From NCBI RefSeq assembly GCF_004376175.1, contig NZ_SNUY01000038.1, positions 7,206-39,205 on the forward strand: a stretch of DNA of 32,000 nucleotides, given 5' to 3'. Position 1 is the first letter of the stretch. Each line of letters opens with the position of its first letter. Made by a program: the position numbers and the translations under genes. The notes below the pieces were generated by a model. It was not told where the DNA came from. It worked only from the letters and a program-made list of their open reading frames with translations, and did not search any database. The stretch is from Halalkalibacterium halodurans. GTDB taxonomy: Bacteria > Bacillota > Bacilli > Bacillales > Bacillaceae_D. Of this stretch, positions 1 to 15,004 are shown piece by piece.

Positions 1-532
1 CTAAAAGTAGCGTGTCAACATTCTCAGCCATAATGTGCATTCCATTCGTACATTGCTCCACAAGGTCCACCGGATCTATCTGTGAAGTGAGAACCTTTTT
101 TTTTAACGCATCTTTTTGGAGCATCTCTAAAATATCTTCTGATAAATGACAAAAATACTGTTCGTTCCACCTTCTTAACAACGATACAAAGTACGTTTGA
201 ATCTGGATCATATCCTTAGATATTTGCTGCACCCATGGCACAAGTAATTCATAAACTTTTTCGGACGGAAGCTGTTCAAGCCAATATAAAAAACCCGTAA
301 TGGTCTCCTTGTGTGGACATTGCCATACAAGCAAACTTAAGCGATGCAACACTTCTAATTTTTGATCTTTCAACTCGTTTGCAAAGTCAGCGTTAATGCT
401 TTTTTCCACTTGTTTCACCCACTTTGTCCCAAGCTCAGAAATTTGCCTGTTAGAAGAATCTAAATAAGTGTACAGGCTTGTAATAAGTTCATAAGCAGGG
501 GAATAATCTATTTCGATTTTATACAAAAGCAC
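1..532 (-). CDS. hypothetical protein, N-terminal ~177 codons; CDS runs off the left edge
   Basis: Absent from the ORF track because it is edge-truncated. Hand translation of the minus strand from GTG 532 (or TTG 526, 9 nt after AAAGGGG) stays open to position 1: (V)LLYKIEIDYSPAYELITSLYTYLDSSNRQISELGTKWVKQVEK...GMHIMAENVDTLLL. No family recognised with certainty. Confidence 0.5.
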   Translation of the reverse strand, partial: MLLYKIEIDYSPAYELITSLYTYLDSSNRQISELGTKWVKQVEKSINADFANELKDQKLEVLHRLSLLVWQCPHKETITGFLYWLEQLPSEKVYELLVPWVQQISKDMIQIQTYFVSLLRRWNEQYFCHLSEDILEMLQKDALKKKVLTSQIDPVDLVEQCTNGMHIMAENVDTLLL

Positions 533-607
533 CAGCCCCTTTGTTCAATATTTTCAAAACTTAATGTTGTTATAATTTTATTAAACAAATAAAGTACTGT
601 CAAACAA

Positions 608-646
608 AAACCATTCGCCCCCGCCTTTGGCGGAAACGAATGGTTT
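608..646 (-). terminator. intrinsic terminator (nested hairpin plus U-run)
   Basis: AAACCATTCG (608-617) pairs with CGAATGGTTT (637-646), with an inner CCGCC/GGCGG stem. On the minus strand it is followed by TTTTTGTTTG. Confidence 0.6.
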
Positions 647-648
647 CA

Positions 649-741
649 TTAATTAGAACGAATTTCTTGTCGCATGAATAAAACATAAGCAATGGCAAAG
701 CAAACAAGGATCGCCGCAATTAAGCCTGTTAGTGTGGCCAA
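649..741 (-). CDS. possible 30-aa hydrophobic peptide
   Basis: Hand-translated (below the ORF-track cutoff): (TTG)MATLTGLIAAILVCFAIAYVLFMRQEIRSN, with its stop 2 nt before the 608-646 terminator. GGAAAG lies 12 nt upstream, which is long spacing. The non-ATG start makes this weak. Confidence 0.25.
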   Translation of the reverse strand: MATLTGLIAAILVCFAIAYVLFMRQEIRSN

Positions 742-945
742 ATGAACAATAAGCTTTCCTTTAAAACAAGCGGACTTACGATTTTACCGACAACAATATT
801 CAAGGAGCGATCCTCCCGATTCAAGAAGGTTCATCTAGTTTTTATTGAAGGATGGATGTGAAGACACTTACATTTCAAAGCGCGATAGCCACATCCCTAC
901 AGGCCCAGAGACATTTATAGTCGAGATTAAAAACGAGTAAACTAC

Positions 946-976
946 GAAAAGCCTCCCTGTTACTGCTAGGGAGGCT
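946..976 (-). terminator. intrinsic terminator after the GyrI-like gene (end of the sigma/VOC operon)
   Basis: Perfect 9-bp stem AGCCTCCCT (950-958) / AGGGAGGCT (968-976), followed on the minus strand by TTTTCG. Confidence 0.6.
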
Positions 977-992
977 AGATTCATCATGACAA

Positions 993-1472
993 TCAACGAA
1001 TAGCCACATACACGTCAATTTCGTTCGTCGCTTCGTCAGGCTTGTACCGTTCATCCCACACTTCAAAATCATAGCCAGCTGGTTGGTATGGCTGTTTTCC
1101 CATCCATGTTCCATAGAGTGCATCATACGTTTTGTAAAGTTCAGCTTCCAGCCCTCGGTGGGTCGCCATTACATATTGGTGGCTTGGAACCGTATGTACG
1201 ATCATTTCCGCTGGTACATCTTTCGGTTCTGCCACTTTATAGCCGATCACTTGCGTAAAACGATCCACATTCGGATTAAAGTTTGGCTTCATGTCATAAA
1301 GCTGAATCAAATAGATTTCTTCCCCTACCCTTTTCTGAACCAATGATTGATTTTCAAGCAATCGGTGTAACGTCTTTTTCCCGAGCTGCTGTTCCTCAAT
1401 TTCTTGTAAATTAGCTTTCAATTGATATCCTATAACCGTAAAAGCATCGATTGATTTTAGTTGAGGGTTCAT
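993..1472 (-). CDS. GyrI-like (SbmC / AraC-effector-binding type) small-molecule-binding protein
   Basis: 159-aa ORF of typical GyrI-like size and pattern (..FTVIGYQLK.., ..THRGLEAELYKTYDALYGTWM.., YDFEVWDERY). Its start overlaps the upstream stop (ATGA at 1469-1472), implying translational coupling. Confidence 0.75.
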   Translation of the reverse strand: MNPQLKSIDAFTVIGYQLKANLQEIEEQQLGKKTLHRLLENQSLVQKRVGEEIYLIQLYDMKPNFNPNVDRFTQVIGYKVAEPKDVPAEMIVHTVPSHQYVMATHRGLEAELYKTYDALYGTWMGKQPYQPAGYDFEVWDERYKPDEATNEIDVYVAIR

Positions 1473-1855
1473 CCTTCTCCCACCTTTACATCACATTGAA
1501 CATTAAATAAATTCCCATCTAGATCGTAAAAATCTAAAAAAGCATTCCCTTCCCCATCTTCATGAATCTCTTCCACTTGAACATCATGCTTCTTTAAGTG
1601 ACCGTATAGCTTATAAATGTCATCCGTTTGAAAGCCAATCACCCCATGAGGCTTGTAGTTATAGGAAAAAGTAGCGGTCGTGTCATGGCTTGTTTCGCGC
1701 AAAAAGACCATTTGCCCAGAAGGGAGGTTCATTTGAGCCAAGTCCTCATCTTCACTATGCCAAATGAATTCCATACCTAGCACATCCGTATACCAACGAA
1801 TCGCCCGATCCATCGACTTGACTGGGACGATCCCATAGATGATCTGTTGTAGCAT
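1469..1855 (-). CDS. VOC (glyoxalase/bleomycin-resistance/dioxygenase) family protein, paralog 4 of 4
   Basis: 128 aa. N-terminal motif VPVKSMDRAIRWYTDVLGMEF and C-terminal FLDFYDLDGNLFNV are typical of the VOC beta-alpha-beta-beta-beta fold. Confidence 0.8.
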   Translation of the reverse strand: MLQQIIYGIVPVKSMDRAIRWYTDVLGMEFIWHSEDEDLAQMNLPSGQMVFLRETSHDTTATFSYNYKPHGVIGFQTDDIYKLYGHLKKHDVQVEEIHEDGEGNAFLDFYDLDGNLFNVQCDVKVGEG

Positions 1856-1873
1856 AGAACTTCCCCCTTCGGA

Positions 1874-2243
1874 TCACTTATCGACGATCACCCCAAACCG
1901 ATTGCCATCCACATCGAAAAAATCAAAGCCTTCAATCGGCCCATGCTCATATATGTCAGTGACCTCAACACCTTTGTCCTTTAAGGATTAAATGATAAGC
2001 TACTAAATCGTCCGTAGTAAAATTGTAGTAGCTGTTTTTGTACGTATCCGTTACCGTAAATTCAAGTGGTTGTTTCTCTTTCACCGTCACTAAACTTACA
2101 TATTGCTTATGCTCCTCAAAATAAAAGTCTGCTCCCATCTCCTCTGGCCAAGTTCCCACATGATTTAACTCGAGCACATCTCGATAAAACGCAATCGACT
2201 TTTGCAAATGAACGACCGGTACGAACACAGCACCAATTCTCAT
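1874..2243 (-). pseudogene. VOC family paralog 3 of 4, interrupted by a 1-nt frameshift
   Basis: The track ORF 1965-2306 ends ...DDLVAYHLILKGQRC*. Shifting one frame at the GG at 1985-1986 continues LKDKGVEVTDIYEHGPIEGFDFFDVDGNRFGVIVDK* (stop 1874-1876), which matches the C-termini of the three neighbouring paralogs. The likely start is ATG 2243, after GGAGAGGTG. Confidence 0.65.
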
Positions 2244-2262
2244 CAGCAGCACCTCTCCTTTT

Positions 2263-2658
2263 TTATTCCTTCGGCCAGCCTTCCCAAATATAAGACCGAT
2301 GTCCATCTAAATCTTTCACGATAAAGCTATAACCTCCCCCTTCTTTATAAACCATTTCCCCAACGGGTACGCCTTTATCTTTTAGGTCCGTATAAAAAGC
2401 ATGAATGTCGTCGACGCGAAACGTTAACACCGCCTTCAGTTCCCCATTCTTATTTCGAAACGACAGATTGGGGACGTCGTCGCAACGAATTAACCCTAGC
2501 CCAATGCTACCATTCACGTTCAACCATGCTTCATCGTCGCCTTCTTGAAATGGAAAAGTAAACGCCAAACCAAGCATCGATTGATACCATTCGACTGCTT
2601 TTTCAAGATTGGAAACAGGCAATTGGATCACTGGAATGTCTAGTGCTTTTCTTGACAT
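2263..2658 (-). CDS. VOC family protein, paralog 2 of 4
   Basis: Motifs VIQLPVSNLEKAVEWYQSMLGLAF and GGGYSFIVKDLDGHRSYIW. Start moved to ATG 2658 (RBS GAAAGGGGA) rather than the track's 2712. Confidence 0.8.
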   Translation of the reverse strand: MSRKALDIPVIQLPVSNLEKAVEWYQSMLGLAFTFPFQEGDDEAWLNVNGSIGLGLIRCDDVPNLSFRNKNGELKAVLTFRVDDIHAFYTDLKDKGVPVGEMVYKEGGGYSFIVKDLDGHRSYIWEGWPKE

Positions 2659-2683
2659 CTTTTTTCGTGTCCCCTTTCTTCGA

Positions 2684-3058
2684 TCATGTGACGACCCCAA
2701 AATGATTTCCATCTAAATCGATTAGATCGAAGCCGCGAACCTTTCCATAATCGTGAATCTCGCCAACATTGGCACCTTTTGAGGAAAGAAGTTGGTGAGC
2801 CTTTCCTACATCATTCGTATGAAAGTTAAAATAGACATTCACCTCATAATCGTTCTGCGGAAACTTAGGTTGTTCGATGTCTTCACATGTCACGAGACAA
2901 AACGTCACCGTCCCATCGCCCACTTTTAACACATTGGCAGCTGGGCTATCATCGTGAATCATTTCAAAGCCTAGCATCTCTTTGTACCAATCCGTTGCTT
3001 TTGCTAAGTGACGCACAGGTATGAAAATGCCGACACCGTAAAGTAAGTCTATGTTCAT
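2684..3058 (-). CDS. VOC family protein, paralog 1 of 4
   Basis: 124 aa with IFIPVRHLAKATDWYKEMLGFEM and RGFDLIDLDGNHFGVV. RBS AAAAAGGAGGGG upstream. Confidence 0.8.
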   Translation of the reverse strand: MNIDLLYGVGIFIPVRHLAKATDWYKEMLGFEMIHDDSPAANVLKVGDGTVTFCLVTCEDIEQPKFPQNDYEVNVYFNFHTNDVGKAHQLLSSKGANVGEIHDYGKVRGFDLIDLDGNHFGVVT

Positions 3059-3090
3059 AAGCCCCTCCTTTTTTCCGTTCTACTCATATA

Positions 3091-3117
3091 AACGAAGGGA
3101 TGAAGCAATACCTTACA
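3091..3117 (-). promoter_or_regulatory. possible ECF-type promoter in front of the VOC genes
   Basis: Minus strand reads TGTAAG-N17-CGTT in the 75-nt gap between the sigma gene and the first VOC gene. It resembles the B. subtilis ECF pattern (tGnAAC-N16-17-CGTx). Motif match only. Confidence 0.25.
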
Positions 3118-3133
3118 CCACATGGTAAAAAAA

Positions 3134-3862
3134 TTATGTACAAATCATTAGCACATGACCGTCTGGATCAATCACTTGAAAACAAAGGGTGTAACCAATC
3201 GAACGCCCTTTTCTTACTTCAATCCCCGCCCGGCTTAGGGCGCAATAGGATTCATAGATAAGTCTCGGGTTTTTTGTACGAAACCCTTTGAGGAATTGTT
3301 CGAACATCGTGGAATCGATTTTTTCAGCACGAACCGATGGACCGATCTGCGGTTCCATATCTGAATAAGAGCGAACTTGTAAATAACGCTGGAGCTTTTT
3401 CTTCGCACGATGCAACGTCGTATACACGTTCGACTCAGATTCATTCATTAAGGTCGCCGTCTCTTTCGCGGTAAAAGCAAATACGTTAGATAGTAAAAGA
3501 GCAACGAATTGTTTTATTGTTAAATACTCCGCGAGCACTTCTAAAAGCTCTCGACTCTCATATTCTTCGTGAAAGTGTAGCTCCTGCATCACATCGTCTA
3601 TTGGTTCAACCTGTAGCTGCCTTTTACGTTTTCTATCAATCCACGTATGTTTAATGATTCGATAGAAGAAGGTTTTCGTCATTTTTCGATCAGGTTGCTG
3701 TTTCATCGCTAGGTAGATTTTTATAAGGCTATCCTGAAATAAGTCCTCAGACTCCCATTTATTATGAGTTAACCGCTTACAATACCATTTCATCTCATAA
3801 AAAAATGGGGAGACTTTTTTCTCAAACTTCGACTCATCAAGAGGCTCCTGTTCATCTCTCAT
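3134..3862 (-). CDS. ECF-type sigma-70 family factor with a ~65-aa C-terminal extension resembling half a VOC domain
   Basis: Region 2-like EDLFQDSLIKIY...TFFYRIIKHTWIDRKRKR. Region 4-like LTIKQFVALLLSNVFAFTAKETATLMNESESNVYTTLHRAKKKL. The extension is described under the 3134-3346 finding. Start ATG 3862 (GTGAGG, 5-nt spacing). Confidence 0.8.
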   Translation of the reverse strand: MRDEQEPLDESKFEKKVSPFFYEMKWYCKRLTHNKWESEDLFQDSLIKIYLAMKQQPDRKMTKTFFYRIIKHTWIDRKRKRQLQVEPIDDVMQELHFHEEYESRELLEVLAEYLTIKQFVALLLSNVFAFTAKETATLMNESESNVYTTLHRAKKKLQRYLQVRSYSDMEPQIGPSVRAEKIDSTMFEQFLKGFRTKNPRLIYESYCALSRAGIEVRKGRSIGYTLCFQVIDPDGHVLMICT

Positions 3863-3899
3863 TTCTGCCTCACCCATTCCATCATTTTTTTAAAGGCAC

Positions 3900-4094
3900 T
3901 TATTCTTTGTTTTTTGATTTTCTAAATTGTATGACACACTCTCTACAAATGCATGATTTCCCTACATGCTCTGGTGGAACTAAAAGAAAGATTCCATTCG
4001 GAAACACTTCGTCATTGCACCAGCAATCACCATATCCGCAGTTGTTTCCTTTGCCACAAATCGGGCAATGCTTGTTTTGTTCGCTCTTGGGCAT
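3900..4094 (-). CDS. small cysteine-rich protein (CWC-motif type)
   Basis: MPKSEQNKHCPICGKGNNCGYGDCWCNDEVF...GKSCICRECV carries 8 Cys including CxxC, CWC and CxC..C. Start taken as ATG 4094 because the track's ATG 4130 overlaps the TATAAT box. Confidence 0.6.
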   Translation of the reverse strand: MPKSEQNKHCPICGKGNNCGYGDCWCNDEVFPNGIFLLVPPEHVGKSCICRECVIQFRKSKNKE

Positions 4095-4177
4095 GAGATT
4101 TCCCTGCTTTCTGTTCGAATCTTCTCTCATTATAAGAAATAAAGTGGTTGTAATCTATATGGAGCTTCTAGTAAATG

Positions 4178-4208
4178 AAAAACCAGGTAAAAGATCCACC
4201 TGGTTTTT
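4178..4208. terminator. bidirectional-looking hairpin terminator
   Basis: AAAAACCAGGT (4178-4188) / ACCTGGTTTTT (4198-4208), a 7-bp core stem flanked by an A-run and a T-run. Confidence 0.6.
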
Positions 4209-4211
4209 GAT

Positions 4212-4370
4212 TCAATATAAGAAATCACTAACAACATACCCAATATGAAATAAAAGGACGAAAATGAGCAGTGGTCCAAGGACGGATACGTACAGTGCCA
4301 TCTGGCCATACCGAATGTTTTTATCTCTCCCGTACATCTTGCTTATGAGCACAATGGCTAGTGTTATCAC
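4212..4370 (-). CDS. possible 52-aa two-TM membrane protein
   Basis: Hand-translated (below the track cutoff): (GTG)MITLAIVLISKMYGRDKNIRYGQMALYVSVLGPLLIFVLLFHIGYVVSDFLY*. It sits between the mgtE terminator and the 4178-4208 terminator. The RBS is weak. An ATG at 4413 in another frame (MKKQYLHQMGLL...) hints at a possible frameshift. Confidence 0.3.
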   Translation of the reverse strand: MITLAIVLISKMYGRDKNIRYGQMALYVSVLGPLLIFVLLFHIGYVVSDFLY

Positions 4371-4448: not shown

Positions 4449-5813
4449 CTATAGATAGGTTGCTAGCGATGAAGCAATCGCAAAATAGAGGAGTAGACCG
4501 ACTATGTCATTAATCGTTGTAATGAATGGGCCTGAAGCAACGGTAGGATCTATACGTAATTTATGAATAATGATCGGGATGATTGTGCCCGTCATTGTTG
4601 AGATGACGACCGTGCCAAAAAGCGCTGTTCCAACGATCAGCCCAAGAGCCATGTTGCCAAAGCCATAAAATTGAGCTAGCAACGCGGCAAAGAGTCCGCA
4701 CACGATCCCCATAATAAGCCCGGTCAACAGCTCTCGTTTAATCATTCGTCGACACGTTGGATGTTTCAGCTTTTCTAAGGTTAACTGCCTGACGACAACC
4801 GCTAATGACTGCGTCCCTGTATTCCCTCCCATATCGGTTATGAGTGGGATGAAAATGGCAAGTAACGCAAGCTGGGCAAGTGTGTCTTCAAAGTGTTGAA
4901 CGACGCTTGCAGTCGCCATCCCAAAAACCATTAATAGAAGAAGCCAAGGTAAACGTTTCATTGCTGCTTTGATTGGATGAACTTCTAGATTGATCGAACC
5001 CTTTGCCCCTGCCAGTTCCTCAAAATCTCCGGTTACTTCATCCTCCACAACGTCCATGACATCATCTACTGTCACGATCCCGATCATTTGATTGGTCTCT
5101 GTTGTGACGGGGATCGCGACAATGTCATAGTCACGTATCAGTTGTACAACCTCCCGCTGATCTGTATGGGGAAAAACAGAGATCACGTGCTTTTTCATTA
5201 GCTGTCGGACCGTTTCATGTAATGAAGAGGTTAAGACATCTTTTAACGAGAGGACACCCATCAGTTGATTGTTCTCGTTTACAACATAAAGGTAGTAGAT
5301 CATTTCGGCATCTTTGCCCTCGGCGCGAAGCGTTTCGAATACATCTGCCACCGTTTTTTCTTGCTGAATGGTCAAATATTCAGTCGTCATCAAGGAACCA
5401 GCTGTCTTTTTCTCATAAGACATTAAACGCTTGATGGCATGGGCCTCCTGTTCATCCATACGATCTAAAAAATAGCCGGTCAAATGATTAGGAATCTCCT
5501 CAAAAAAGTCGGTCATATCGTCTGGTGCCATTTCTTCGAACATTTTAATCGTGTAAGACTCTTTCAGCTCTGTGACAATCTGTTTTTGTTGGTTCCGTTC
5601 CATCCCTCTAAATATAGGAGCAAACTCTTTCGGCCCAATCCATTCATACACTCGCTTCCGCTTTTGAACGTTCAACTCCGAGAAAATCTCCACTTGATCA
5701 ATAGGATGTAATGCAAGAAAATCATCGCGAAATTTTTCTCGTTCTTGTTCTTTTAAATACATGTGTAAGTAAAAGGTATACTCTTCTCTGTTTTTGAAGT
5801 CCAGCATCATCAT
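4449..5813 (-). CDS. mgtE: magnesium transporter MgtE
   Basis: N-domain, a CBS pair (..LMGVLSLKDVL.., ..MIGIVTVDDVMDV..) and a C-terminal 5-TM MgtE domain (ITDMGGNTGTQS, GPFITTINDIVGL). Start ATG 5813, after AAAGGAGGA. Confidence 0.9.
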   Translation of the reverse strand: MMMLDFKNREEYTFYLHMYLKEQEREKFRDDFLALHPIDQVEIFSELNVQKRKRVYEWIGPKEFAPIFRGMERNQQKQIVTELKESYTIKMFEEMAPDDMTDFFEEIPNHLTGYFLDRMDEQEAHAIKRLMSYEKKTAGSLMTTEYLTIQQEKTVADVFETLRAEGKDAEMIYYLYVVNENNQLMGVLSLKDVLTSSLHETVRQLMKKHVISVFPHTDQREVVQLIRDYDIVAIPVTTETNQMIGIVTVDDVMDVVEDEVTGDFEELAGAKGSINLEVHPIKAAMKRLPWLLLLMVFGMATASVVQHFEDTLAQLALLAIFIPLITDMGGNTGTQSLAVVVRQLTLEKLKHPTCRRMIKRELLTGLIMGIVCGLFAALLAQFYGFGNMALGLIVGTALFGTVVISTMTGTIIPIIIHKLRIDPTVASGPFITTINDIVGLLLYFAIASSLATYL

Positions 5814-5832: not shown

Positions 5833-6540
5833 TTACAAATGTTCCACATCAACGGTGAGAACATGGTCGATCTTTTTGATGAGGTAATAAATTTCCGTCG
5901 TATATTGTTTTTCTGGAGCCGATAAAATCAGTTCCACTTGCTGATTACCGTTCTCTAAATCTTTTAATTTCAGATGGCGAATGCGGATGTCGCTCCCTTT
6001 TTTAGCCATGCTCGTTTTTCGTTCAATCGATTGGATTAGTTCCGTCATTCTCATATTCGGCTCCATGACCATCTTGACCGCCACATCTCGTTGCCGAAGA
6101 GAAGAAGGCCCCACTTTTTTCACGAGTTGAGGAAAGACATTTATCGCTAGCATTAAAAGGACTACCATATACCCTGCTTCAATGTAGAAGCCTGCGCCAA
6201 CAGCAATTCCTAATCCTGACGCTGCCCAAATCATTGCAGCTGTCGTCAGACCGGAAATGACATCATTTCGTTTTCTTAAAATAACTCCCGCCCCTAAAAA
6301 ACCGACACCGCTCACAATTTGCGCCGCTAAGCGCATTGGATCCATATTATTAAACATCGGGGTCGCAAACCTGTGAAACGATTCGACCGACACGATCGTT
6401 ACTAGACAGCTGGCAACACAAATGACCATGCTCGTCTTTAATCCTAAAGGTTTGTGCTTTAACTGACGGTCAATACCAATCAATAATCCGAAAAATAATG
6501 CGATGCTTAATTTCATTAACAGTTCTGTCATTTCGTTCAC
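5833..6540 (-). CDS. mgtC: MgtC/SapB family membrane protein
   Basis: LSIALFFGLLIGIDRQ...GLKTSMVICV...GVGFLGAGVILR...GLTTAAMIWASAGLGIAVGAG is a classic MgtC N-domain, followed by a soluble ACT-like C-domain. The start may be ATG 6531 instead of GTG 6540. Confidence 0.85.
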   Translation of the reverse strand: MNEMTELLMKLSIALFFGLLIGIDRQLKHKPLGLKTSMVICVASCLVTIVSVESFHRFATPMFNNMDPMRLAAQIVSGVGFLGAGVILRKRNDVISGLTTAAMIWAASGLGIAVGAGFYIEAGYMVVLLMLAINVFPQLVKKVGPSSLRQRDVAVKMVMEPNMRMTELIQSIERKTSMAKKGSDIRIRHLKLKDLENGNQQVELILSAPEKQYTTEIYYLIKKIDHVLTVDVEHL

Positions 6541-6621: not shown

Positions 6622-6842
6622 CAAAAAGCCTACCTTCTACAAATAAAGGTAGGCTCCCCAAACACACTCATGTTCTATGAGCGAGATTCCCTTCATTCGT
6701 AGAGCTTTAGCACTGTATGGCATAGGACATTGCCAGCTACATTAAAAATCACCTTATGTCGATGATTTCTGTTGACCCATTGGCGTCTCTGGACGTTTTT
6801 GGGCAGCAGCATATCTCCATACAGGAGCCTCACCTAACGAAG
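6622..6842 (-). promoter_or_regulatory. M-box (ykoK/mgtE-type Mg2+) riboswitch, copy A: aptamer ~6691-6842 plus terminator 6622-6655
   Basis: The minus strand reads CUUCGUUAGGUGAGGCUCCUGUAUGGAGAUAUGCUGCUGCCCAAAAACGUCCAGAGACGCCAAUGGGUCAACAGAAAUCAUCGACAUAAGGUGAUUUUUAAUGUAGCUGG...CCAUACAGUGCUAAAGCUCUACGAAUGAAGG. This is close to the B. subtilis mgtE M-box as I recall it. A 10-bp terminator (AGCCUACCUU/AAGGUAGGCU) plus UUUUU follows. Confidence 0.85.
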
Positions 6843-6855
6843 TGGTTGTACGTAT

Positions 6856-6987: not shown

Positions 6988-7292
6988 AAAAAAAATCACC
7001 CTCATACGAATGAAGGTGATTACGTCATGTTTCCATTGTTCAAAAAACGAAAGCCTGATGCCAAGACGATCATAAGAAACGCACACTATAATCGTAAAGA
7101 TGCCCCTTTATCGGGCATAGCGATGGCAATGGCCACTGTTGTCCCCCATTCGTAGAGCTTTAGCACTGTATGGCATAGGACGTTGCCAGCTACATTAAAA
7201 ATCACCTTATGTCGATGATTTCTGTTGACCCATTGGCGTCTTTGGACGAGCAGCAGCATATCTCCATACAGGAGCCTCACCTAACGAAGACA
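6988..7292 (-). promoter_or_regulatory. M-box riboswitch, copy B: aptamer ~7141-7292 plus terminator 6988-7021
   Basis: A second near-identical M-box core. The terminator AAUCACCUUC...GAGGGUGAUU plus U8 lies ~110 nt downstream. Its 5' arm (CUUCAUUCG) is complementary to the aptamer 3' P1 strand (CGAAUGGGG), as expected for an antiterminator switch. Confidence 0.8.
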
Positions 7293-7316
7293 TTTATGAA
7301 ATTTTTTACAACTCAT

Positions 7317-8710: not shown

Positions 8711-9949
8711 TTACCGAACAAGCTTTTTAAATTTCCGTTTGCCCACTTGTACGATGAGGCCATCCTCTATTTCCACTTGTAACTGGACGTCTTCGATTTT
8801 TTCACCGTTAAGCTTCACTCCGCCATTTTGCACCATTCGCCGTGCTTCACCTTTTGATGGCAATAAATCGAGGGTCACAAGCAAGTCCACAATCCAAACA
8901 GAGGATTCGCCATCCCACTTCACTTCTGGAATGTCCGTTGGCAAATCTCGCTTTTGGAAGACCGTTTTAAAGTAATTTACGGCTTCTTCAGCTTCGTTTT
9001 CGCCATGATACATTCGAACAAGCGTAGCGCCAAGCTTCATTTTCGCATCGCGTGGATGGACACTTCCATCTTCTAGGCCTTTTGCGATCGCTTTTACTTC
9101 ATCCATTGATAAATCGGTCGCTAACTCATAGTATTTCACCATGAGCTCATCTGGAATCGACATGGCCTTTCCAAAAATCTCATTTGGCGCCTCATCAATA
9201 CCAATGTAATTGTTTAAGGATTTAGACATTTTTCGTTCTCCATCCAATCCTTCGATTAACGGCATCGTGATCGCAACTTGCTTATCGTTTCCATAAGCTT
9301 CTTGAAGCATGCGCCCCATCAGCAGGTTGAACTTTTGATCCGTTCCGCCTATTTCAATATCCGACTCTAACGCTACCGAGTCATACCCTTGCATGAGCGG
9401 GTAGAAAAACTCATGGATGGAAATAGGCTGACCTGACTTGTATCGCTTTTCAAAGTCATCCCGTTCAAGCATCCGAGCGACGGTCATTTGACTCGCAAGC
9501 TTAATGACATCTTCAAAGTTAAGCGCGCTTAACCATTTTGAATTATAATGTAACGTTGCTTTTTCCATATCTAAAATTTTTCCGTACTGCTCCACATACG
9601 TCCGAGCATTCGCTTTCACTTGCTCATCGGTTAGCTGCTTTCTCGTCTCAGATTTACCAGATGGATCCCCAATTCGCCCGGTAAAATCCCCGATCAACAT
9701 TTGCACCTCATGGCCAAGATCTTGGAATTGTCGCAGCTTATGAAGGACAACCGTATGACCGATATGAACATCAGGGGCTGACGGGTCCATCCCTAGCTTT
9801 ACTTTTAACGGCTTACCTGTCCGAACCGACTTTTCAATTTTTTCTCGTAAAGCTTCTTCAGGGACAATTTCCACTACCCCACGCTTTAGAATTTCAAGCT
9901 GTCGCTCCACCTCTTGGGTTTGCTCTGGCGTTAACGCTTTTTCCTCCAC
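8711..9949 (-). CDS. tyrS: tyrosine--tRNA ligase
   Basis: HIGH (DVHIGHTV) and KMSKS motifs, a C-terminal S4 domain, a GTG start after AGGAGGA, and a Tyr T-box upstream. Confidence 0.95.
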
Positions 9950-9993: not shown

Positions 9994-10237
9994 TAAAAAA
10001 ACCCCTCCCACATAAGGGACGAGCTTACTCGCGGTACCACCCTTTTTGGAGAAATAGTAGCATTTCTCCCAACTCCAACATGATAACGGCATGCCCCGTT
10101 TCTTCACCAAAATAGCAAAGAAAAAGCTCCAAGCTGTACTTCACGAGTCGCCTTTGTACTGATTTGCACCAACCACCAGCTCTCTTTTTACAGGGAGACG
10201 TTCGCTACTGTCACTCTTCAACGCTCAATATTGATTC
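9994..10237 (-). promoter_or_regulatory. T-box leader, tyrosine specifier (UAC)
   Basis: The minus strand has the T-box sequence AAAGGGUGGUACCGCGAG (about 10030-10047), then a terminator stem plus a U7 run (9994-10024). It also has an AGAGA/GA-motif region and GAAG-UAC-A in the specifier position (UAC = complement of 10136-10138). Candidate promoter TTGACT (10272-10267)-17-TAAAAA. Confidence 0.85.
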
Positions 10238-13677: not shown

Positions 13678-14543
13678 TCAAAACTTGCCTTGAATCCTTT
13701 TGCACGACCCTCTATTGATTAAAGTCGCATTTATTTTTTCTACAATACCAAGCTGTTCTTTTCCTTCTATCGATTTAATTAAAAGTGTTGTTGCTCTCTT
13801 TGCTATGTCTACAAATGAAATATCTATCGTTGTCAAAAGAGGGGATAAATATGAGGCAAAAAACGAATTATCAAAACCTACAATCGAAATGTCCTCTGGA
13901 ATATTCAATCCTAACTCTGCAATGGCTTTGTAAGCTCCAATAGCCATTGTGTCGTTACTGATAAAATGGCCGTGGGCTTATTTGACCCATTGAGTATAGA
14001 CTTTATCCCTTCGTACCCGCTATCCTCAGTGAAATCTCCTTGAAAAATGTGGTCTTCACTAAGCTTTAATCCATGATAACTTAATGTCTCTTTAAATCCA
14101 TCTAGTCTTTCTTTAGCAGATACTTTATTTAGATTCCCTGTTATAATCCCAATTTTTTTATGTCCGAGTTCAACTAAATGATTGACTGCTTTCGCACTAC
14201 CCTCATAGTTATCTGGATTAATATAAATAGCATTATGTTCTTTACTATATACTTCGCTTGTATCAATCATGGCTATCTTATATCCTTGTTTAATGAGCTT
14301 AAAAATAAACTCATTTTCATCTTCTTGTGTTCCAACAAAAATGGCACCTTCAATCATTTTTTGATTGAAAATACTCTCGACCTTCTTTAAGTCCTCTTTC
14401 GAATAAACAATCGATATGATGACATAATAATCTAATTTGTTGGCTTGATCACTTACTGCATTAATAACGGGAGCAAAAAAGGGGTTGTTGTAGATTAATG
14501 TATCGTCAGTCGTTTTGAGATGATGTGTGCCATCGTTCTTCAC
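13678..14543 (-). pseudogene. LacI-family regulator remnant: no HTH domain, 1-nt frameshift
   Basis: ORFs 13911-14543 and 13678-13947 are consecutive parts of one LacI ligand-binding domain (..NPFFAPVINAV.., ..KKIGIITG.., then NDTMAIGAYKAIAELGLNIPEDISIVGFDN..LTTI). The frames join if one T is added to the T4 run (complement of 13963-13966). Only ~45 nt (MVKSKYLVFISVFSL*) lies where the ~60-aa HTH should be. Confidence 0.7.
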
Positions 14544-14704
14544 AAAGAAAAAACAGAAATGAAAACTAAATATTTACTTTTTACCATCTTCCATCCTCCT
14601 TATAGGGATCATTTTGTTACTATCCGTTAACTAACGCGTGTTAGTAAACAGCGAAAAATTTGTTGTTACTTTTTCGGTAACAACTTTAAAAAATTCGGAA
14701 TTTT

Positions 14705-14718
14705 CGAAAGCGCTTTCA
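14705..14718. promoter_or_regulatory. cre-like / LacI-type operator palindrome
   Basis: cGAAAGCGCTTTCa has a perfect 12-bp palindromic core and matches TGAAAGCGCTTTCA at 13/14 positions. It lies ~160 nt upstream of the LacI pseudogene. Confidence 0.3.
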
Positions 14719-14960
14719 ATCCTATTATAAATGAATCTTAAATAAATTCAATCTTTTTCACTACTTTTTCTATTAACTGCAAAAAGTCAGGTTATCATAC
14801 AGCGCGTAGAAAAAATATTATTTTCCGAGGGTAAAATCCCCCAAAATCAACTGAAATAGCTAAATATCGGAGAATTCGATTTATGCTACTTTTTGTAACG
14901 ATTCTTTTCTCAATAAACAATTTTGCCTCATTCACTACCTCAACATTTGATTAAGTGCTA

Positions 14961-14996
14961 AAATAAAGCCCCTACAGGATTGGTTCCATAGGGGCT
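14961..14996 (-). terminator. terminator of acsA
   Basis: AGCCCCTA (14967-14974) / TAGGGGCT (14989-14996), followed on the minus strand by UUAUUUU. Confidence 0.7.
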
Positions 14997-15004
14997 GGAT
15001 GCTT

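Follow-up and report, generated by a model that had tools for sequence, protein, structure and literature searches.

The stretch analysed here, referred to as the window, is 32,000 nucleotides (nt) of the genome of Halalkalibacterium (Bacillus) halodurans (RefSeq assembly GCF_004376175.1, contig NZ_SNUY01000038.1, positions 7,206 to 39,205 of the forward strand), and locus tags were assigned to its genes by exact-sequence look-up. Its minus strand carries a cluster of seven co-directional open reading frames (ORFs), which encode, in gene order, a cysteine-rich CWC protein, a sigma factor of the extracytoplasmic function (ECF) type (BH3223), four members of a vicinal oxygen chelate (VOC) array (VOC1 to VOC4, of which VOC1 is BH3222) and a GyrI-like protein (BH3218); the upstream magnesium transporter is BH3224. 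Here we describe the C-terminal extension of the sigma factor, which has homology to two different protein families, and a conserved ECF-type promoter from which the sigma factor is predicted to drive the VOC and GyrI-like genes. The gaps between the ORFs measure 37, 75, 25, 19 and 20 nt and the last two genes overlap by 4 nt, which bears out the gene count and spacing given in an earlier model-made description of the same letters (hereafter the sequence-only reading). A terminator that it had placed at 946-976 was also recovered, at 947-976. The genes of the cluster and the signals of its VOC part are the following.

3900..4094, minus strand: cysteine-rich CWC protein, 64 amino acids (aa), PF14375 at 34.3 bits (an alternative form of 76 aa starts at 4130; PGAP lists both)
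3134..3862, minus strand (maximal ORF to 3877): ECF sigma factor BH3223, 242 aa, with sigma2, sigma4 and a C-terminal extension, identified by Pfam and by an exact match to BAB06942.1
3088..3133, minus strand: predicted ECF-type promoter of the VOC-GyrI operon, with a T-tract (3133-3127), a -35 element TGTAAGG (3117-3111), a 16-nt spacer and a -10 element CGTTTAT (3094-3088)
2684..3058, minus strand: VOC1 (BH3222), 124 aa, PF00903 at 32.4 bits
2263..2658, minus strand: VOC2, 131 aa, PF00903 at 37.9 bits
1876..2243, minus strand: VOC3, frameshifted in this strain, an intact protein of 122 aa elsewhere
1469..1855, minus strand: VOC4, 128 aa, PF00903 at 54.1 bits
993..1472, minus strand: GyrI-like/Cass2 effector-binding protein BH3218, 159 aa, PF06445 and PF14526 at 65.5 bits each
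947..976, minus strand: intrinsic terminator at the end of the VOC-GyrI operon, a hairpin with a U-run, -19 kcal/mol, z = -2.5

BH3223 matches the Pfam models Sigma70_r2 (PF04542, 42.9 bits) and r4_2 (PF08281, 40.3 bits) above their cut-offs, and TIGR02937 with a score of 62.7 against a cut-off of 42.9. It contains sigma2 and sigma4 alone, without sigma3 or sigma1, and is thereby an ECF (group 4) sigma factor. A Foldseek search with the AlphaFold2 model of the full-length protein (predicted local distance difference test, pLDDT, 72.8) returned ECF sigma structures only, with matches to SigH, SigW and RpoE. Residue C28 in sigma2 is invariant, and the linker between sigma2 and sigma4 reads '...KRQLQVEPIDDVMQE...' and contains no WLPEP motif. 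No gene for a transmembrane anti-sigma factor lies next to BH3223, as had been pointed out before. We explain this by a feature that the sequence-only reading overlooked: the protein continues for about 73 aa past sigma4 into what is probably a regulatory C-terminal extension.

The extension is present in every full-length homologue found. In the genome collection it is kept in about 60 loci or species of Bacillaceae, Paenibacillus and Cohnella, with invariant F, D and G residues and the consensus F-x-A-x-V-x-A-F-R-R-R-D-P-x-A-I-x-x-A-Y ... G-x-L-x-F-x-F-x-D-P-D-G-N. AlphaFold models it as two helices followed by three strands, with a pLDDT of about 80-83 both within the full-length model and in isolation (83.2 when isolated). 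A search of 1.84 billion representative sequences with the single tail sequence matched 14 proteins, namely about ten of the size of a sigma factor (208-259 aa) that bear the tail at their C-terminus, three shorter ones (97-181 aa) that are probably fragments and one of 1456 aa. This search did not reach VOC proteins, and profiles were therefore needed. The 1456-aa protein (P0056) contains six separate stretches that resemble the distal part of the sigma tail, and is presumably a multi-VOC repeat protein.

For the profile comparison the short extension was split at a conserved 'NP/DP', and the two halves were compared with their candidate relatives by profile-profile alignment (hhalign), in which the best of the reversed-sequence controls gave P = 0.025.

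3266..3355, minus strand: extension part A, residues 170-199, linker and first helix ('FEQFLKGFRTKNP'), similar to the start of a SnoaL-like extension
3137..3265, minus strand: extension part B, residues 200-242, a helix and three strands ending '...CFQVIDPDGHVLMICT', similar to the C-terminal module of a VOC protein

Part A aligns with the start of SnoaL-type extensions at P = 1.7e-7, as opposed to P = 0.56 with the neighbouring VOC proteins. Part B shows the reverse, with P = 2.5e-13 against the neighbouring VOC proteins, at their C-terminal alpha-beta-beta-beta module, and P = 0.23 against SnoaL. When a profile of 49 extensions was compared with the sequences of the PDB, VOC proteins came out on top (3EY7, E = 4.5e-4; also a glyoxalase, STM3117, FosA and a mitomycin-binding protein) and were aligned to the distal part; the proximal part aligned with designed NTF2 proteins. 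The Pfam Glyoxalase family (PF00903) was matched individually by 23 of the 49 whole extensions. At the level of sequence profiles, then, the extension is a chimera that joins a SnoaL-like proximal helix to the C-terminal half-module of a VOC protein.

Relatives of BH3223 indicate how such a tail may have come about. A set of sister sigma factors (311-337 aa; loci L055, L062 and L064-L077) has a longer extension with weak SnoaL_2 matches, and the genes for these SnoaL-type sisters are themselves directly followed by VOC genes. This makes a fusion in frame the simplest history: most likely the tail arose once, when a deletion joined an ancestral SnoaL-extended sigma gene to the adjacent VOC gene. 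A tree of the sigma2-sigma4 cores, built by neighbour joining, unites all 61 sigma factors that bear a half-VOC tail in one clade, apart from the SnoaL-type clade, which is consistent with a single origin of the tail.

Downstream of the BH3223 stop codon, in the 75-nt gap before VOC1, the window reads TGTAAGG-tattgcttcatccctt-CGTTTAT (3117-3088). Related loci share this bipartite motif, TGT(A/T)(A/T)GG-N16-CGTT(T/A), after the sigma stop codon, usually with a T-tract before it. In its strict form the motif occurs in 32 loci including the window, 7-59 nt past the stop codon and always on the coding strand. The pattern was matched 51 times, compared with 22 times in shuffled sequence, and most of the matches are at the post-sigma position; across the window the site before VOC1 is the only high scorer (23.7, the next best being 10.6). 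Where the gene order has changed, the motif travels with the VOC gene, so that it stands upstream of a sigma-VOC1-GyrI arrangement in one locus (L002) and beside a distant VOC gene in another (L031). In other subclades, VOC-sigma or sigma-VOC-VOC operons are preceded by the variants CGTATC...CGTTAAT and CGTAAGG...CGTTATA. TGTAAGG-N16-CGTTTAT is accordingly listed here as the predicted cognate promoter of BH3223.

This promoter also changes the transcriptional picture of the cluster. The sequence-only reading had assumed one operon transcribed from a TATAAT box near 4130; since an ECF-type promoter lies directly upstream of VOC1, there are at least two transcription units rather than one: the CWC and sigma genes would make up the first, and VOC1-4 with the GyrI-like gene a second, which depends on the sigma factor. 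Two further signals concern the first of these units.

4129..4134, minus strand: candidate housekeeping -10 box TATAAT of the CWC-sigma transcript, from reading the sequence; the -35 box TAGATT is weak and the spacer is 18 nt
4172..4214, minus strand: hairpin and U-run resembling an intrinsic terminator, folding energy -18.3 kcal/mol, z = -3.9, none of 200 shuffles as good

The TATAAT box (4134-4129) is indeed perfect, but it overlaps the ATG at 4130, its -35 box matches at three of six positions and the promoter scan made no call there. The CWC start is therefore likely at 4094, and the promoter is a candidate only. At 4172-4214 the hairpin brings the upstream mgtC-mgtE transcript to an end and shields the CWC-sigma unit from it.

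Linkage of the sigma factor to VOC genes is widespread. In 54 of the 62 loci with a half-VOC tail (Bacillaceae, Paenibacillus and Cohnella) the sigma gene has a VOC ORF no more than 300 nt away, 39 of these ORFs being downstream on the same strand, 14 upstream on the same strand and one divergent. VOC1 is the most widely conserved gene directly downstream of the sigma gene, with sigma-adjacent orthologues at E values down to 6e-50 and homologues of 51-65% identity. GyrI-like genes recur in clusters of Evansella, Salinibacillus, Cohnella and Paenibacillus (e.g., L001 and L020), suggesting that the GyrI-like gene is a frequent, although not universal, part of the regulon. In the window the start of this gene overlaps the stop of VOC4, and the Pfam match to its product, which is above the cut-off, spans residues 1-158. 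The gene neighbourhoods thus support the view of a sigma factor dedicated to VOC and GyrI-like genes for binding small molecules; VOC genes, and often GyrI-like genes, recur beside the sigma gene in related loci, and CWC does not, as detailed below.

VOC1, VOC2 and VOC4 belong to the VOC superfamily by their matches to PF00903, for which the gathering cut-off is 20.6 bits. Four VOC proteins had been expected at the locus; the family assignment stands, but the VOC3 frame is shifted in this strain, where a 1-nt insertion near 1991 leads to a stop at 1965. The frameshifted copy scores 19.3 bits with PF00903, below the cut-off, whereas the intact 122-aa gene found in strain C-125 and other strains carries the domain. 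At the site itself an insertion is accompanied by a substitution (TCATTTAATCC here, TCA-TCAATCC elsewhere), and the truncation is confined to this strain, where either genuine pseudogenisation or a mistake in the assembly may account for it.

All four VOC proteins lack the first metal-ligand histidine, as the sequence-only reading had noticed, and have F, Q/V, F and Y, respectively, in its place. VOC2 shows weak FosB-like similarity without the metal ligands, and VOC4 shows weak similarity to glyoxalase I with His replaced by Tyr and by Val at two ligand positions. Scores with the Ble-like_N family (PF22677) are 22.7 bits for VOC1 and 14 for VOC2, both below the cut-off of 24.5, and among PDB sequences VOC1 has no relative better than E = 0.5. 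It is reasonable to infer that the VOC proteins bind a small molecule or modify it in a metal-independent way; a ligand of the bleomycin or mitomycin type, in line with the sequence-only reading, would be conjectural.

The arrangement recalls several known ECF systems. In ECF41, exemplified by Ecf41Bli of B. licheniformis and SigJ of M. tuberculosis, the sigma factors have no anti-sigma factor and carry a fused extension, of which the proximal part is needed for activity and the distal part is inhibitory; their sole target is the adjacent gene, through the promoter TGTCACA-n16-CGTC (Wecke et al. 2012, PMC3426412). BH3223 resembles them in having a fused C-terminal, presumably regulatory extension and no anti-sigma factor, an adjacent small enzyme-like gene as its likely target, a bipartite promoter of the form TGT....-N16-CGT. 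with the same spacing, sometimes placed before a target-sigma operon, and a retained proximal extension helix. There are also clear differences. The ECF41 extension is a SnoaL_2 domain of about 100-120 aa, whereas that of BH3223 is about 73 aa long and has no SnoaL_2 match in Pfam, only its first helix (about 30 residues) being SnoaL-like and the remainder VOC-like. Unlike ECF41 sigma factors, BH3223 has no WLPEP linker motif, its neighbour is a VOC gene rather than a COE gene (carboxymuconolactone decarboxylase, oxidoreductase, epimerase), and the -35 element of its clade is TGTWWGG (motif TGTWWGG-N16-CGTT) rather than TGTCACA. Membership of BH3223 in ECF41 was ruled out on the missing SnoaL_2 domain, WLPEP motif and COE neighbour.

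A better match is ECF115, a group from Firmicutes (Bacillales) with no characterised member. It is described as having an extension of about 70 aa 'with several possible domains', a SnoaL_2 extension of about 130 aa in one subgroup, a cysteine in sigma2, no anti-sigma factor, promoter elements CGT at -10 and ATC at -35, and, except in subgroup s3, a Clp protease as the only conserved neighbour (Casas-Pastor et al. 2021). BH3223 shares the origin in Bacillales, an extension of matching length (73 aa), long relatives with SnoaL_2-like extensions, the invariant C28 and the lack of an anti-sigma gene, and the CGTT at -10 of its clade's promoter agrees with CGT. On the other hand, the -35 element is TGTAAGG/TGTWWGG in place of ATC, which is approached by the CGTATC variant in one subclade only, and the conserved neighbour is a VOC gene instead of a Clp protease. 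Two basal relatives have a clpP paralogue directly downstream of the sigma gene (L067, 6660-7247; L075, 5994-6608), as in the published ECF115 context. The C-terminal tails of these two are unrelated both to the half-VOC tail and to ClpP; mimicry of ClpP by the tails was checked and ruled out. ECF264, ECF265, ECF288 and ECF295 were likewise rejected as the home group on extension type and context.

Taken by the published group description, BH3223 probably belongs to ECF115. The sequence-only reading had recognised no described regulon or group in the cluster; the sigma factor does fit a catalogued group, and its logic resembles that of ECF41 and of SigG of M. tuberculosis. SigG (ECF56, with a SnoaL_2 extension) is likewise an extension-bearing ECF sigma factor linked to VOC genes, and its regulon is described as detoxification genes of the glyoxalase, bleomycin-resistance and dioxygenase families. 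It is, however, actinobacterial, its extension is a full SnoaL_2 domain without a VOC-derived part and its targets are not an adjacent tandem array. A physical tie between a VOC domain and ECF regulation also exists in the actinobacterial group ECF125, which has a soluble anti-sigma factor with glyoxalase domains; there the VOC domains are on a separate protein with an N-terminal anti-sigma domain, whereas in BH3223 a half-VOC is fused to the sigma factor. Neither a VOC context nor a VOC-like tail is mentioned in the ECF115 description or in a review dealing with ECF sigma factors that are non-canonical, and literature searches yielded no paper on BH3223 or BH3222 and nothing on this system under ECF combined with glyoxalase or VOC. 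The half-VOC tail and the VOC regulon thus appear to be undescribed.

The reading that we favour, with a probability of roughly 0.65, is that BH3223 is an extension-gated, ECF115-like sigma factor that follows the ECF41 pattern, with the neighbouring VOC-GyrI operon transcribed under its control from the promoter at 3117-3088. The sigma gene would be co-transcribed with the CWC gene from a housekeeping-type promoter, and BH3223 would recognise one cognate promoter, TGTAAGG-N16-CGTTTAT, which lies past its own stop codon in the 75-nt gap. From there it would transcribe VOC1-VOC2-VOC3-VOC4-GyrI as one operon up to the terminator at 947-976. In place of an anti-sigma factor, the fused extension of about 73 aa would gate sigma activity: by analogy with ECF41, the retained SnoaL-type proximal helix may be essential for activity and the VOC half-module may form the regulatory distal part. 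The products of the operon, VOC proteins poor in metal ligands and a GyrI-like protein, probably bind or modify a small toxic molecule.

Several points weigh against this reading. Foldseek with the isolated extension model gave no match at E < 1e-3, its list holding Rossmann fragments, NTF2-like proteins and a single VOC protein, and the half-VOC assignment therefore rests on sequence profiles. The AlphaFold2 model also has a helix before the VOC-like helix, where a full VOC module has a beta-strand. The tree of sigma cores is a neighbour-joining tree without bootstrap support. As to the predicted promoter, its -35 element TGTAAGG is unlike both the ATC motif of ECF115 and the TGTCACA of ECF41. 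The gap between the sigma gene and VOC1 contains no terminator, so that read-through from the sigma gene into the VOC genes is possible. Finally, no Clp gene is present in the window, clpP being found only beside the basal relatives L067 and L075.

Among other explanations, the one that survives best is that the tail mimics the sigma factor's own targets, although we regard it as doubtful. The half-VOC tail would pair with the complementary module of a VOC protein from the operon, much as small VOC proteins pair their modules across a dimer, and the VOC protein would act as a soluble anti-sigma factor or co-sensor. Once the VOC protein had bound its ligand, the equilibrium would move towards a freed or activated sigma factor, which would create a product-feedback sensing loop. 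Such pairing is favoured by the fact that one half-module alone does not suffice for a VOC pocket, by the homology of the tail to precisely the C-terminal module of the adjacent VOC proteins, by the near-universal adjacency of sigma and VOC genes, and by ECF42, in which the neighbours (YCII) also occur fused to sigma factors. Against it, tails score only marginally better with their own neighbouring VOC protein (18.2) than with VOC proteins from elsewhere (15.3; the median rank of the own neighbour is 22 of 45), which is at most a weak hint of co-variation, and the VOC paralogue at position +1 differs between lineages. In ECF41, moreover, the product of the neighbouring gene had no signalling role (Wecke et al. 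2012, PMC3426412). Equally tentative is the specific form in which the tail completes a VOC fold with a free module of an operon VOC protein, or with a second sigma tail, and the resistance protein is itself the receptor. If this were true, the sigma factor would read the ligand occupancy of the VOC pool directly, and ECF control would gain a new class, a target-mimic switch that works by partner completion and arose through fusion of a regulator with the target gene beside it.

Much less probable is the activation proposed for ECF115 itself (Casas-Pastor et al. 2021), in which the extension is an inhibitory domain that is cut off by Clp protease, so that proteolysis, and not the binding of a ligand or partner, activates the sigma factor. 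The clpP genes directly downstream of the sigma gene in L067 and L075 fit this proposal, but these ClpP-linked relatives have unrelated tails, no Clp gene occurs within about 6 kb of any half-VOC locus, and the proximal extension is conserved, which would fit a need for it in activity like that seen in ECF41.

The least probable explanation keeps the cluster as a single seven-gene operon from the TATAAT box near 4130, with the CWC protein as a soluble (zinc or redox) anti-sigma factor; between the CWC gene and the sigma gene downstream of it there are indeed 37 nt without a terminator, the CWC product has eight cysteines and the gene was found in all H. halodurans strains examined, but none of 80 related loci has a CWC-like ORF although the sigma gene, extension, promoter and VOC genes are conserved, the CWC sequence 'KHCPICGKGNNCGYGDCWC' lacks the zinc-binding anti-sigma (ZAS) motif H-x3-C-x2-C, and a conserved ECF-type promoter precedes VOC1. 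A ZAS factor would show both the motif and conserved co-occurrence with the sigma factor, and CWC, which at this position is specific to H. halodurans, shows neither. Comparative data thus largely refute the sequence-only reading's choice of CWC as the sigma partner, and by its distribution CWC is better seen as a species-specific passenger or modifier than as a conserved partner.

If BH3223 is indeed an extension-gated sigma factor of this kind, its interest goes beyond one cluster. Among ECF designs, the sigma factor with a fused regulatory extension ranks second in frequency, and only a few extension types (SnoaL, TPR and Cys-rich) have been studied. The ECF115-like sigma factors would gain a concrete VOC/GyrI-like regulon, and the precise target promoter could be used as a reporter or an orthogonal genetic part. 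The tail would illustrate clearly how a regulatory domain can be made by recombination of a regulator with its own target gene. Should the tail dock on VOC proteins, this would explain how a cytoplasmic sigma factor senses xenobiotics without an anti-sigma factor. The system would also offer a route to the ligands for about 60 species with orphan VOC arrays.

The surroundings of the cluster vary. Strains differ directly downstream of the operon terminator (window 1-990; L083, 6922-8218; L081, 7338-8234). In C-125 and most strains this place is taken by another ECF sigma gene, convergent and accompanied by a zf-HC2 anti-sigma factor; judging solely from the adjacency of the gene numbers, the pair is probably BH3216/BH3217. 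The window and assembly GCA_034259345.1 have instead a helix-turn-helix/ArsR-like regulator and a major facilitator superfamily transporter. On the other side, a metagenome-derived H. halodurans-like contig (L084, 3496-4001) has ABC-transporter genes upstream that replace mgtC-mgtE. Its similarity to the window begins only at about 4151, which places the left edge of the conserved block a short way upstream of the CWC gene.

Further upstream the window contains two complete M-box (magnesium) riboswitch aptamers, at 6685-6848 and 7137-7295 on the minus strand, about 290 nt apart and upstream of mgtC (5833-6540) and mgtE (4449-5813). The two may be arranged in tandem; alternatively, the distal one may regulate some unannotated feature between them. 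A T-box leader (10012-10230, minus strand, 123 bits) lies upstream of an ORF of 412 aa at 8711-9949. The G+C fraction dips to 0.32 at 14001-15000, around an ORF at 13911-14543, while it is about 0.43 elsewhere, and this segment may have been acquired recently.

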